Shown: piece after piece, positions 7,624-13,863 of the stretch
Layout of the letters: each line of letters starts with the position of its first letter
Numbering within the stretch: the stretch's first letter is position 1
Assembly: GCA_048884785.1 (NCBI GenBank)
Contig: JBHLQM010000047.1
Location: 1-28,583 of the forward strand
Reading direction: 5' to 3'
Source: Candidatus Thorarchaeota archaeon
GTDB taxonomy: Archaea > Asgardarchaeota > Thorarchaeia > Thorarchaeales > Thorarchaeaceae
DNA: 28,583 nt
Made by a program: the position numbers and the translations under genes
Notes under the pieces: model-generated
Seen by the model: the letters and a program-made list of their open reading frames with translations, nothing else
Databases searched by the model: none
What the model was told of the DNA's origin: nothing

Positions 7624-8148
7624 TCAGGATTTCATCTGATACAACCGCTTTAGCATTGATATCTGTCCGATGTGCATGGCCTCATGTTCTATGATATGAA
7701 AGAGTATCCACTCAATGCTAACAGCCGCATGGTCAAGCTCAACCAAGTGGCCTAACTCACTATCTGTAAGAGTTGAGATTCGCTTGAGCACTTCATCCCT
7801 GACTTCTATAAGCCGCGCGAGATAGAACTTCAGTTTTTGCCCCTTAGTCTGAGGAATTTTCTCTCTCAAGGCAAATGCAACTCTCCATTTTTCATAGTCC
7901 ATCTCAAGGCCATCTATGTCCTCGAAAATCCATGACCACTCTACGGCAGCTATGTGAAGCAAAAGGGTTCCAATTGTTTCAATGTTTTCTTCATCGGGTG
8001 TGAAATCCAATTCTGAGAGAGTTAGGTCCTCAACTCGTTTGAGGAGTTTCTCTCTTACTTTTTCCAGCATGCCATACATTTGTGCCACGCGCGGTTCCAA
8101 ATGCTCAGTCTTCTGCAATGATATGATTGTTTTCTCTTCTCCGTCCAT
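7624..8148 (-). CDS. DinB/YfiT-like four-helix-bundle metalloprotein (ORF open to 8187; ATG 8148 preferred)
   Basis: IGTLLLHIAAVE and WILFHIIEHEAMHIGQI His-triad pattern. Confidence 0.88.
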   Translation of the reverse strand: MDGEEKTIISLQKTEHLEPRVAQMYGMLEKVREKLLKRVEDLTLSELDFTPDEENIETIGTLLLHIAAVEWSWIFEDIDGLEMDYEKWRVAFALREKIPQTKGQKLKFYLARLIEVRDEVLKRISTLTDSELGHLVELDHAAVSIEWILFHIIEHEAMHIGQISMLKRLYQMKS

Positions 8149-8175
8149 GCCGTATAACTTGCAGAGCGACAATAT

Positions 8176-8373
8176 TTGTCTAGTCATTCTCTTGAAAGAT
8201 ATAGGGCACCAATGAAATCCGATGGATGGCTTTGGGTAACGAATCGGAAAGGAACCTCAAAAGCAAAGACTGATGTTAGTCGTGATAGCATCTGGGAGTA
8301 TGCCAAGAGTTTCGGACTGAAAGATGTTCACATGATCTCAATTGATGATACATGGTCTGCAATGCGTTTCTGA
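8176..8373 (+). pseudogene. C-terminal remnant of a DUF3052-like protein
   Basis: DGWLWV..KGTSK.KTD.SRD...MISIDDTWSAMRF resembles the C-terminal half of DUF3052-type proteins; the N-terminal half is missing. Confidence 0.55.
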
Positions 8374-8454
8374 ATCTCCGAATGGGATATTCGGGTTTGT
8401 TCCTATTTCTCATAACTTAATACTAGAAGTAAGAATTCCAAGCTGCGATTAAAG

Positions 8455-8715
8455 ATGACTGAGTTCAAAAACCATGCGGAAATTTGGGGTTTTGAAGGAT
8501 GCGGTGCCATGTGGAGTTTCTTCAGCAAACAGGAATCAGCTTTACGGCACGCAGGTGAGAATGAAGTATATTCTTTTAGAATTCATGAGGCCTTTGATCT
8601 TGATAACAGACGTCGTCTTGAGCTCGGTTATTCAAGGATATCTCTTGAACAATTCTACGAATGCATCGACCTCGGAGAAAGCTGCTCCTTAGCCGAGGAT
8701 GAATGCATCGAGTAA
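8455..8715 (+). CDS. Small acidic hypothetical protein
   Basis: 86-aa ORF with an ATG start, TTAATA box ~35 nt upstream, filling an otherwise empty gap. Confidence 0.5.
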   Translation: MTEFKNHAEIWGFEGCGAMWSFFSKQESALRHAGENEVYSFRIHEAFDLDNRRRLELGYSRISLEQFYECIDLGESCSLAEDECIE

Positions 8716-11117: not shown

Positions 11118-11414
11118 TTGCCTCATGGCATTAGAAGAATAGTTCTGGACGTTTTGAAACCACATACACCTAGATTGACTGATCTTGCCCTCATGCTATC
11201 CAGAGATCCGCACGTTATTGGTGTAAACATATCACTAAAGGAAGTTGACCAGAATACAGAGTCAATAGCCGTTACTCTCGAGGGTGATAATCTCAGCTTT
11301 GAGTCCATTAAGGAGATTCTTGAGCAAGCCGGAGCAGTCATTCACTCGATCGATCAAGTGGTGGCGGGAAAGGAACTTGTTGAAGAAGTAACCCTACAAC
11401 CAGAGAATTCTTAG
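11118..11414 (+). CDS. DUF211 family protein (COG1888-like)
   Basis: [17 protein letters not shown]...EVD..TE and [13 protein letters not shown] signatures. Confidence 0.9.
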
Positions 11415-11419
11415 TTCTC

Positions 11420-12052
11420 CTATCGATTTCTCAACTGCCTGAGCAGTCGATTGCTTTCTTCTTCTATTTTTCGATGGACTATTGAACGCAGGTCATGTTC
11501 AAATGCATTAGGCACAATGCTTACGATATTGCAGAGTCTATCTACTATTCTATCCGCAAGGGCGTGTGGAGCTAGAACTCCTCCAGTGACCACACTCTTT
11601 ACAACCGCTTCTCCTACACTTGTTCGGATGACAGAATCAACAACATTGGAAATAGTTCCATCAGGATCAACATAGAATGGAAGTTGGGTTCTATCATGAA
11701 GTACAAGAAAACCTAGCTTTTCAGTAATGCTGTCAGTATACCATTCTAGGCTTGACTCCTTCATTCGGAACTTGTTGGCAAACTCAGTCTTTGTAAGAGG
11801 ATTTGGGTGGCTCCATGGATGTCGTGTGACCATATACAAAGCAGCAGCAAAGAATGGGTCTGGTTCTCTGGGAACTCCTTCCTGAGACACATAGCGTCGT
11901 ATTAGATTCAATGCCATTGTTTGATAGTTCTCATCAATTCTGTTTTCATTGAAGAATTGATGGGCATTTCTAACCAACCCTACTACCACCTTTGGGCTTG
12001 CAGCTAGCCCATCATATTCATCACGAAAATCCATTGTCACGTTCGCTCTCAT
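11420..12052 (-). CDS. Protein with a single TFIIB/TFB-type cyclin-fold repeat and an unknown C-terminal domain
   Basis: ALNLIRRY..REPDPFFAAALYMVTR..PLTKTEFANKFRMKESSLEWYTDSITEKLG aligns by eye with the TFB core repeat; no Zn ribbon. Confidence 0.65.
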   Translation of the reverse strand: MRANVTMDFRDEYDGLAASPKVVVGLVRNAHQFFNENRIDENYQTMALNLIRRYVSQEGVPREPDPFFAAALYMVTRHPWSHPNPLTKTEFANKFRMKESSLEWYTDSITEKLGFLVLHDRTQLPFYVDPDGTISNVVDSVIRTSVGEAVVKSVVTGGVLAPHALADRIVDRLCNIVSIVPNAFEHDLRSIVHRKIEEESNRLLRQLRNR

Positions 12053-12145
12053 CCGGCAGTATATATGAAATGCGGTTGCTTGTTGCTTATATGTCCATAG
12101 GAAACTGAGGTCAGGGACTATTGTATTACGCGCGGTTTGCTTTCA

Positions 12146-12757
12146 CTATCTTGCCTTGTAGACTTTCTCGAGAGCCCACCGCATTGCCCTCTCAATCTCA
12201 GTGAGTCGGACTTCTCCTCCGTAATTCTTGATGACAACCTCTTCAAGAATACCATTGTCCGCACGGACTTCAAAATCGAAAGCATCATCCCATGTCAGCT
12301 CACCTGCTTCCACTCTATGACGGTCCTCTTCTTGGAATTTACCAAGAATTCGTTCCACGAAGAATCTTGCAAATGCGCCTCTCTTTATATCATAGACTGC
12401 ATGGGCTGCGGGAATTGCCCGAATCTCATGGGACGTTACTTCAAGTGTTGCGAGTTCGAGGTCTCTCCCCTTGTTGAACAGAACTATGCTCCTGAGCTCA
12501 GGTACTCCCTCGGTTGTTGCTCTCTCCGGTGGAGGGGTTTTTGCTGGTGCTGCACTGCTCATGGCTGCCTCAGCAGTTGCAAAGCTTCCTGCAGTAATTG
12601 TGGCATCCAGTGCTTTGATGTACTCCTCTATCTTCTTTATTCTGCTGCGAAGTTCTTCCAACTCCTTCTGCAGCTCTCTTCTAATTTCCAGCAGAGTGGG
12701 TACCTGTGGACTTGCCATGATTGACACCTTTGGATAGATGTGCTTCTTAGGAATCAC
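12146..12757 (-). CDS. Conserved archaeal coiled-coil protein, unknown function
   Basis: N-terminal heptad coiled coil, GSFATA, Ala/Pro linker, then a globular domain (FFVERIL..D, IKNY, RL.EI..RW.LEK) recalled from TACK/Asgard hypothetical proteins. Confidence 0.75.
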   Translation of the reverse strand: MIPKKHIYPKVSIMASPQVPTLLEIRRELQKELEELRSRIKKIEEYIKALDATITAGSFATAEAAMSSAAPAKTPPPERATTEGVPELRSIVLFNKGRDLELATLEVTSHEIRAIPAAHAVYDIKRGAFARFFVERILGKFQEEDRHRVEAGELTWDDAFDFEVRADNGILEEVVIKNYGGEVRLTEIERAMRWALEKVYKAR

Positions 12758-13131: not shown

Positions 13132-13863
13132 GTGAATGCTGGTGGTTTCAAGGTGAAAAGGTTCTTTGTATTTCAGTGCTCGAACTGCCAGAATTTCACG
13201 ACTGCGCCTGTAGAACAGAAACGAAGGAGATGTAGCTATTGTGGAAAAATAATCGATATCTCCAAAGCCGCAAAAGCGTTGGTCGAAGATCATCAAGCGG
13301 CATCTATTGCAGTTCGAGCATATAATGCAGCAAGGGGTGGAGATGAATTCGAGAAAGCAGTCGATAGATCCCGAGAACGTATTCGCCAGCTTGTGCCCCT
13401 CACAAAAAAGACTGCAGAGGAGATCGCTACCCAAGACGTAGAAGATGAAATCCCCTCTGGAAGACAGGCAAAACTCAGATTCCTATTAGAAAAACATGCC
13501 GCCGTTTCTCCATTGTCATTGACTGAACTCGAAGATCATTGTTCAAAGAATAATCTAGACTGGTCTTGGGTGGAGAAGCAACTCACACTAATGGCAAATG
13601 CCGGAGCTCTTATTTTTCCGCGTCCATGGACAGTTCAGGCAGTGAGAGCGTCCGAAAGCGATGAACAAGTTCAACCACTGCTTCGCGATGTGACTCAGGA
13701 TATTTTGAAGCTGCTTGGAACAAGTACTGTGAGTGTTGAGTCAATTATAGCACATTTCCAATCACGTGGCATCTCGAGAGCATCTGTTGAAAACTCTTTG
13801 AATAAGTTAATGCGGTCTGGAGACATATTTGAACCGAGTACAGGTCAAGTGCGAGTAATTTAG
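13132..13863 (+). CDS. Zn-ribbon (DUF1922-like) protein with two C-terminal winged-helix domains
   Basis: CSNC...RCSYCG ribbon; two wHTH-like repeats ending LMANAGALIFPRPWTVQAV and LMRSGDIFEPSTGQVRVI. Confidence 0.75.
   Translation: MNAGGFKVKRFFVFQCSNCQNFTTAPVEQKRRRCSYCGKIIDISKAAKALVEDHQAASIAVRAYNAARGGDEFEKAVDRSRERIRQLVPLTKKTAEEIATQDVEDEIPSGRQAKLRFLLEKHAAVSPLSLTELEDHCSKNNLDWSWVEKQLTLMANAGALIFPRPWTVQAVRASESDEQVQPLLRDVTQDILKLLGTSTVSVESIIAHFQSRGISRASVENSLNKLMRSGDIFEPSTGQVRVI

Follow-up and report, generated by a model that had tools for sequence, protein, structure and literature searches.

A single TFB-like cyclin box in an undescribed protein family of Asgard archaea

The gene described here lies at positions 11420-12052 on the reverse strand of the window, that is, of the whole 28,583-nucleotide stretch of Candidatus Thorarchaeota DNA that was analyzed (contig JBHLQM010000047.1). 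Its product is predicted to combine one cyclin box of the type found in the transcription factors TFB and TFIIB with a β-hairpin and a C-terminal helical domain. Within the cyclin-box/TFB superfamily the protein represents a family of its own, with its own architecture, that is undescribed: neither Pfam nor NCBIfam has a model for it, and no description of it was found in the literature searched, including Asgard structural-modeling papers and reviews. In effect, the family is one TFB-like box that has been uncoupled from the machinery of initiation and that is conserved across Asgard lineages labeled Thor, Loki, Hel, Odin, and Frey. We propose, with rather less than even confidence, that the protein is a TFB-derived, non-initiating cyclin-box adaptor or co-regulator that works through protein contacts, probably in the regulation of transcription.

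Predicted Fold

The gene and the parts of its product discussed below are the following.

11420..12052, reverse strand: cyclin-box gene, an open reading frame (ORF) of 210 amino acids including the stop; probable start ATG 12034 (M7), giving 204 amino acids; database gene call at GTG 12040.
11708..12001, reverse strand: single TFB/TFIIB-like cyclin box of five helices, residues 18-115 (AlphaFold2, VIA-align, Foldseek, profile against PDB, hhalign).
11792..11824, reverse strand: loop between helix 3 and helix 4, RHPWSHPNPLT, residues 77-87 (alignments, hhalign gap).
11738..11761, reverse strand: KESSLEWY, where helix 5 begins (residues 98-105), the counterpart of the DNA-recognition helix of TFB repeat 2 (hhalign, conservation).
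11657..11707, reverse strand: conserved β-hairpin “wing” and turn, residues 116-132, pattern L.D....PYF.DP.G (AlphaFold2 strands, conservation).
11423..11656, reverse strand: C-terminal three-helix domain, residues 133-210 (AlphaFold2, hhalign, generic helical matches, full-length coverage in distant homologues).

The structure was modeled with AlphaFold2 from a 33-sequence family alignment (A2) in which identity falls to ~20%. The model has a mean pLDDT (predicted local distance difference test) of 94.1 and a pTM (predicted template modeling score) of 0.85, and the box helices, placed at residues 20-36, 41-58, 64-76, 88-94, and 99-113, reach a pLDDT of ~98. Helix 5 is followed by the hairpin, with predicted strands at residues 116-119 and 125-128, and then by three long helices (133-156, 162-176, and 182-208) that make up the C-terminal domain.

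Residues 18-115 of this model form a cyclin box. Against a library of 48,161 PDB representatives, VIA-align superposed the model on repeat 1 of human TFIIB (residues 109-209) with a Z of 11.6, at 2.9 Å over 99 residues, followed by Ccl1/cyclin H (Z 11.4), Pyrococcus woesei TFB (Z 10.7), Brf1 and cyclin C (both Z 10.6), and cyclin B1 (Z 10.3), the cyclins A/B/C/D lying at Z 10-10.8. In Foldseek the first ~24 matches are TFIIB, Brf, or TFB, after which cyclins appear (E 1.5e-3 upward, probability 1.0). Realignment of the Foldseek top 1000 gave a Z of 11.7 for TFIIB and Brf2 (over both searches, TFIIB repeat 1 superposes with a root-mean-square deviation, rmsd, of 2.8-2.9 Å over 98-99 residues), a Z of 11.1 for yeast TFIIB repeat 2, and a Z of 11.0 for repeat 1 of P. 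woesei TFB (1d3u_B); 180 chains have a Z of at least 8, and all 50 matches listed have a Z of at least 10 and are of cyclin fold. Overall, 98-108 residues superpose at 2.5-3.0 Å on TFIIB, Brf2, and Ccl1. The five-helix arrangement that characterizes the cyclin-box superfamily is thus present both in the AlphaFold2 model and by superposition. The original prediction had traced a TFB core-repeat pattern over residues ~25-115, and the box now placed at ~18-115 by AlphaFold2, VIA-align, Foldseek, and the family profile agrees with it. Since the best structural matches lie within the TFIIB/cyclin superfamily, with TFIIB/Brf/TFB leading, cyclins next, and no unrelated family among them, the claim about the fold stands.

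For the C-terminal domain, no kinship with a cyclin repeat could be detected. In the whole-model fold search, residues 132-210 drew generic three-helix matches only, at Z 6-7.6, and flexible structural alignments spanning both halves of the protein gave an rmsd of 8-12 Å. A degenerate second cyclin repeat was considered here and rejected, hhalign comparison of the domain with TFB repeat 1, TFB repeat 2, and the protein's own N-terminal domain giving probabilities of 0.2-1.2%. The view that there is no detectable second repeat, and that the C-terminal domain is unrelated in sequence to the first, is upheld by these values. The domain is conserved together with the box, and both halves are covered in distant homologues.

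Relationship to TFB, TFIIB, and Cyclins

Searches of Pfam, NCBIfam, and PDB with the single sequence returned nothing useful. The family profile, searched against PDB, matches the human TFIIB core with an E-value of 2.4e-5 (profile positions 11-107 onto repeat 1), P. woesei TFB with an E-value of 0.04 (repeat 2), and cyclin B1 with an E-value of 0.1. The source genome itself encodes five full TFBs of 320-322 amino acids, each with a Zn ribbon and two repeats and scoring 60-85 bits with PF00382, the TFIIB model. In hhalign comparisons, the N-terminal domain of the family pairs with repeat 2 of these TFBs at a probability of 91.6% (E 8e-7, 84 columns) and with repeat 1 at 60% (E 8.6e-5); as a yardstick, TFB repeats 1 and 2 match each other at 97.4%.

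The curated models are silent or nearly so. PF00382 does not match the query protein, and 2 of the 33 aligned family members match it only at E-values of at least 0.078, none passing the threshold; a genome-wide search with the same model found the five canonical TFBs and not the cyclin-box gene. Cyclin_N (PF00134) likewise leaves the query protein unmatched and is sub-threshold in 4 of the 33 members (best E 0.0013), while its genome-wide search gave weak signals at the canonical TFBs only and none at the cyclin-box locus. Taken together, the profile and hhalign matches and the sub-threshold Pfam scores indicate that the box is TFB-like in sequence, slightly nearer to repeat 2, and too diverged for the curated models. 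An ESM Atlas lead to DUF6398 (PF19935; score 0.92) was discarded: no member of A2 matches it at an E-value of 1 or below, and a genome-wide search found nothing at the locus.

The likeness to the core repeats of TFB/TFIIB, especially the C-terminal one, extends to details. Both share the five-helix box with its G-x-P-R/AALY signature in helix 3 and the helix-turn-helix (HTH)-like helices 4 and 5 ending in LG[FI], and these repeats supply the best profile and fold matches. By contrast, TFB repeats and cyclins lack the hairpin, and the family adds to its box both this element and the three-helix domain. The five TFB paralogues of the source genome lie on contigs C3, C4, and C35 (loci L002-L009), two in tandem on C4 and two on C35.

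Missing Initiation Parts and an Altered DNA-Reading Face

Relative to TFB, the family has one repeat and lacks the Zn ribbon, the B-reader, and the B-linker. The protein contains a single cysteine (C174) and only ~17 residues ahead of the box, and therefore has no Zn ribbon, as originally noted; the same was found in all aligned homologues. B-reader and B-linker are absent too, there being no intervening sequence ahead of helix 1, where the five TFBs of the genome carry ~110 residues. A second cyclin repeat was not detected by hhalign in the C-terminal domain (probability at most 1.2%). The sequence supports the view that the protein is unable to recruit RNA polymerase, which agrees with the earlier description of a TFB-derived or cyclin-like protein without that function: the nearest repeats by profile are those of TFB/TFIIB, and ribbon, reader, and linker are all gone.

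The box also differs from TFB where TFB reads DNA. The KESSLEWY segment corresponds to the helix with which TFB repeat 2 recognizes the TFB recognition element (BRE). There hhalign pairs TEVTVRNRYKE of the TFB helix with KESSLEWYTDS, so that the first arginine of TVRNRY, which we take to be the BRE-reading residue in TFB/TFIIB-BRE structures, is replaced by Glu103. In no family member is this position Arg; it holds Glu, Asp, Asn, Ser, or Gln and, in a single case, Lys. The net charge of Thor-type boxes is -1 to -5, whereas in the TFBs of the same genome repeat 1 carries +9 to +14 and repeat 2 +2 to +5; in more distant family members the values range from -9 to +14. TFB-style DNA reading by the Thor-type box appears unlikely, because the position of the BRE-reading arginine is acidic or polar family-wide and because the box is acidic where TFB repeats are basic.

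A further difference is the loop between helices 3 and 4, which is ~3 residues longer than in TFB, as judged from the hhalign gap. Nine of its 11 positions are invariant in Thor orthologues, P79 and H82 are conserved in at least 90%, and R77 and P79 are nearly invariant family-wide. The conserved polar residues of the protein cluster in this loop, at the start of helix 5, and in the hairpin (L.D....PYF.DP.G). By fold topology, the conserved surface would be the face that repeat 2 turns to DNA. Trp, Tyr, His, and Pro abound on it, not Lys and Arg, and it may well form a specific binding site, whose ligand is more probably a protein than duplex DNA.

Distribution and Variants of the Family

The protein had been called an orphan, and this description does not hold. 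A word-indexed search brought up 220 proteins, 198 of the 301 Asgard genomes sampled contain relatives, and the gene has conserved neighbors. The best 120 proteins of the word-indexed search are 60-77% identical, ~204 amino acids long, all named “hypothetical,” and labeled Thorarchaeota or related Asgard groups. An exhaustive search of representatives gave 36 clusters at 50% identity, most of 185-220 amino acids and covering both halves of the query. Three of the 36 are false matches, namely P0142 (3587 amino acids, 24 matched stretches), a fibronectin type III-repeat protein that scored through summed repeats, and P0155 (a histidine kinase) and P0156, which are not family members; about 30 of the distant clusters are genuine. 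Distant members are labeled Lokiarchaeota, Helarchaeales, Odinarchaeia, or “Asgard group,” and one Odinarchaeia member is named “cyclin family protein” by NCBI. A further protein search started from distant members gave 12 proteins and no new lineage labels.

In the phylum survey of 301 genomes, whose families are coded f1, f2, and so on (f1 being that of the source genome), matches are present in 72 of 76 genomes of f1, 67 of 68 of f9, all 11 of f27, 15 of 19 of f12, all six of f19, and all five of f7. They are rare or missing in f5 (1 of 28, weak), f14 (0 of 11), and f22 (0 of 21). The gene is single-copy in the source genome, as a genome-wide search showed, and in most f1 genomes, and up to nine matches per genome occur in f9. 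When 185,579 species genomes were scanned for the pattern WSHPNPLT together with LA[ED]xIVD[RQK]LC, 72 loci were confirmed, every one labeled Thorarchaeota, Promethearchaeota, Hermodarchaeota, or uncultured archaeon.

Several members depart from the standard architecture. P0157 is a fusion of a winged HTH domain, the cyclin-box module, and tetratricopeptide (TPR) repeats. P0124 carries an N-terminal pair of transmembrane segments, and in P0139 the box is followed by a coiled coil, which replaces the C-terminal domain, and by a C-terminal membrane anchor.

Neighboring Genes

Gene neighborhoods were compared at 16 loci from eight families (f1, f2, f6, f7, f9, f19, f27, and f30). In the window, the features upstream of the cyclin-box gene are the following.

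12086..12104, reverse strand: promoter-like element TTTCCTATGGACATATAAG, read 12104-12086, a TATA-like box with a conserved motif upstream, in the 93-bp spacer (sequence and comparison with L055, L056, L061).
12146..12757, reverse strand: gene for a coiled-coil plus α/β-domain protein of ~190 amino acids, always the next gene upstream, same strand, in five Asgard families (synteny, AlphaFold2).
13132..13863, forward strand: gene for a Zn-ribbon plus winged-helix protein, divergent and beyond the coiled-coil gene (synteny, PDB profile matches, Pfam).

The arrangement with the coiled-coil gene directly upstream and the divergent Zn-ribbon/winged-helix gene beyond it recurs at 9 of the 16 loci, in f1, f2, f6, f7, and f19. 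In these five families, every genome for which both positions are listed has the coiled-coil gene 70-1400 bp upstream on the same strand. AlphaFold2 models the coiled-coil protein (pLDDT 79) as a long helix, a disordered linker, and a domain of β4-α-β2-α topology. It belongs to no Pfam family, and the fold search was uninformative (best VIA-align Z 6.0, best Foldseek E 0.011); the weak matches are an uncharacterized Methanothermobacter thermautotrophicus protein (3cxj), folds resembling type III secretion system chaperones, and ARPC4, the p20 subunit of Arp2/3 (probability ~0.5). The coiled-coil protein is highly conserved across many Asgard families, and an ESM Atlas lead (score 0.95, 2444-member cluster) points to Nitrososphaerota and Bathyarchaeia as well.

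In the Zn-ribbon protein, the C-terminal winged helix matches those of RPA32 (E 2.2e-7) and MCM (E 2.6e-6) by profile against PDB, and the ribbon resembles MTH1184/DUF1922 (MTH1184 E 6.4e-5). The TFIIB-ribbon model of Pfam is sub-threshold in 4 of 10 orthologues, and matches to DUF5817 are sub-threshold as well.

Other lineages have other neighbors. At four f9 loci (L041, L046, L051, and L054, around 7800-8600) the best homologue always has a divergent partner gene, which encodes a ~140-residue protein with ribbon-helix-helix (RHH) and HTH domains, and a SarA/MarR-like gene and an Lrp gene are the neighbors in f30. In f27 (L043:7722-9383 and L049:7691-9861) the gene directly upstream encodes a ~550-residue GTPase of the Ras family (Ras E 4e-40) that has a Zn ribbon at its C-terminus, and L049 also holds a 183-residue longin-like protein (Fuz_longin_1, E 0.0023, sub-threshold). 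No kinase or other enzyme was found as a conserved neighbor at the 16 loci. Near the f9 loci there are also several paralogous proteins of 70-90 amino acids with an ...IPF...Y.G.E.IPFK.. motif.

Possible Role

A single TFB repeat is the most likely origin of the family, which would then have shed all that a TFB requires for initiation: the Zn ribbon, the B-reader, the B-linker, and the second repeat, together with the basic surface and the BRE-reading arginine. What would have been retained is one strongly conserved face, composed of the loop between helices 3 and 4, the start of helix 5, and the wing, as the presumed specific binding site. The most plausible setting would be the control of transcription, with the protein binding a DNA-binding regulator and/or TBP/TFB and, in Thor-like lineages, working jointly with the coiled-coil protein whose gene is the next one upstream. 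That it is not an initiation factor is argued by the missing ribbon, reader, and second repeat, by PF00382 scores below threshold, by the acidic box, and by glutamate in place of arginine. The adaptor role is favored because genes for DNA-binding proteins adjoin in separate lineages (Zn ribbon/winged helix; RHH plus HTH; SarA/MarR-like plus Lrp; the P0157 fusion) and because the coiled-coil gene is upstream in every paired genome of f1, f2, f6, f7, and f19.

TFB derivatives that are incapable of the full initiation reaction are known from other archaea, namely TFB3 of Sulfolobales and an engineered, N-terminally truncated TFB2. TFB3 acts as a modulator. However, TFB3 retains the Zn ribbon and truncated TFB2 retains both repeats and promoter binding, whereas the Asgard family retains neither and has extra domains of its own. 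Sulfolobus TFB2 lacking its N-terminus is dominant negative (bioRxiv 10.64898/2026.09.06.749720), which gives a precedent for a modulator role. The same preprint calls for a survey of cyclin-fold proteins in Asgard archaea (bioRxiv 10.64898/2026.09.06.749720).

Several points weigh against this proposal. The partner and the binding to TBP/TFB are both proposals, a search for RNA runs that cover the locus found none, and small DNA-binding genes commonly become neighbors by chance. The two families overlap only in part: coiled-coil members occur in f8, f13, f15, and f21, in which no box was detected; conversely, the box is present in f12 and f27 without a detected coiled-coil family, and the coiled-coil matches in f9 are weak. 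The spacer has a promoter-like element of its own, so that co-transcription with the coiled-coil gene is only a possibility. Several distant members have basic boxes (+3 to +14), so that direct nucleic-acid binding is possible for them, and the membrane-anchored members (P0124 and P0139) and the Ras-family GTPase neighbor in f27 hint at other settings.

The basic boxes bear on a different reading, in which the protein is a sequence-specific nucleic-acid-binding regulator that uses the HTH of helices 4 and 5 and the hairpin as a winged helix to read a non-BRE site. The polar residues with the strongest conservation do lie on the face that contacts DNA in TFB repeat 2 (a face that we take from the geometry of 1AIS/1D3U), many distant members have basic boxes, with isoelectric points of 9-10, and autoregulation could operate through the conserved motif that precedes the TATA-like box of the gene. 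However, in the Thor-type proteins the box is negatively charged (-1 to -5), the base-reading arginine position is Glu, Asp, or polar throughout, and the conserved face offers Trp, Tyr, His, and Pro instead of Lys and Arg. We regard this reading as fairly unlikely.

It is improbable that the protein is a cyclin-like regulatory subunit tuning an enzyme such as a protein kinase, in effect a proto-cyclin. The fold is the same as in cyclins such as cyclin H/Ccl1 (Z 11.4) and cyclin C (10.6), and these, with cyclins A/B/D (10-10.8), are stated as within 1 Z of TFIIB; to this come the sub-threshold Cyclin_N signals in 4 of 33 members, the cyclin B1 profile match (E 0.1), and the NCBI name of the Odinarchaeia member. 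Profile similarity is nevertheless clearly better to TFB/TFIIB, there is one box only, Cyclin_N gives no score over its cut-off and is silent at the locus, and the conserved neighborhood contains neither a kinase or other enzyme nor a partner of the cyclin-dependent kinase (CDK) type. To our knowledge, no CDK-type partner is known in these genomes.

Orc6, a part of ORC with TFIIB-like domains and a C-terminal helix that binds Orc3, is a case of the cyclin-box fold being used outside transcription initiation, and a comparable adaptor in DNA replication or repair, working with the neighboring Zn-ribbon/winged-helix protein, is suggested by the VIA-align match to Orc6 (8s0d_F; Z 8.5 over 89 residues), by the likeness of the neighbor's winged helix to those of RPA32 and MCM, and by the synteny at 9 of 16 loci. 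We regard this as very improbable: the Orc6 score is 3 Z below that of TFIIB and is a fold match without sequence signal between different architectures, the winged-helix likeness is to a generic protein-interaction module, the conserved neighborhood has no replication gene, and the Zn-ribbon gene is divergent, with two genes in between.

Extremely doubtful, finally, is an adaptor for small GTPases or membrane signaling, for which the GTPase upstream in f27, the longin-like protein at one of its loci, the membrane-anchored variants, and a JGI record naming one coiled-coil homologue “Roadblock/LC7/MglB” could be cited: the GTPase adjacency is confined to one family, the longin match is sub-threshold (E 0.0023), and the JGI name was rejected, as Pfam Roadblock matches neither ten coiled-coil partners nor the JGI-named protein itself.

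Cyclins, Rb, and TFIIB share one fold, of which TFB is thought to be the ancestral bearer. The family bears on how this fold spread from transcription factors to other regulators, and its features include the added domains, an expansion of paralogues in one lineage, variants with membrane anchors or a TPR fusion, and a partner gene that is conserved. A bolder version of the adaptor proposal, which we consider quite unlikely, is that of a widespread and independently evolving Asgard stand-alone cyclin box, split from TFB, that serves other proteins as a regulatory subunit away from promoter DNA; if true, it would be an extant instance of the transition from TFB repeat to cyclin/Rb-like regulator that has been postulated for the origin of eukaryotic cyclins. 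Because the protein is small and confidently modeled, its partners, its DNA binding, and its effect on transcription in vitro are directly testable.

Gene Start, Selection, and Promoter

The ORF at 11420-12052 has 210 codons including the stop and translates as quoted. Close orthologues nearly all begin with MDFRDE or MEFRDE in the alignment, so the true start is probably the ATG at 12034 rather than 12052; the database gene call (P0002) gives 206 amino acids. Against Thor orthologues the nonsynonymous divergence (dN) is 0.16-0.31 with saturated synonymous divergence (dS), and the sole computable dN/dS is 0.11. By these sequence comparisons, the ORF is a real gene under purifying selection.

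The spacer to the upstream gene is 93 bp long, and the motif preceding its TATA-like box recurs 45-70 nt before the start in the close relatives L055, L056, and L061. With this recurrence, the TATA-like box suggests that the cyclin-box gene probably has a promoter of its own, which we regard as putative. The conserved TTTCCTATG(C/G)A motif, directly upstream of the TATA-like box, is a candidate operator or extended promoter element.

On the other side, a DUF211 (COG1888) gene at 11118-11414 on the forward strand runs toward the cyclin-box gene and meets it tail to tail, with 5 bp between the ends of the stop codons, and its protein is 86% identical among Thor relatives.

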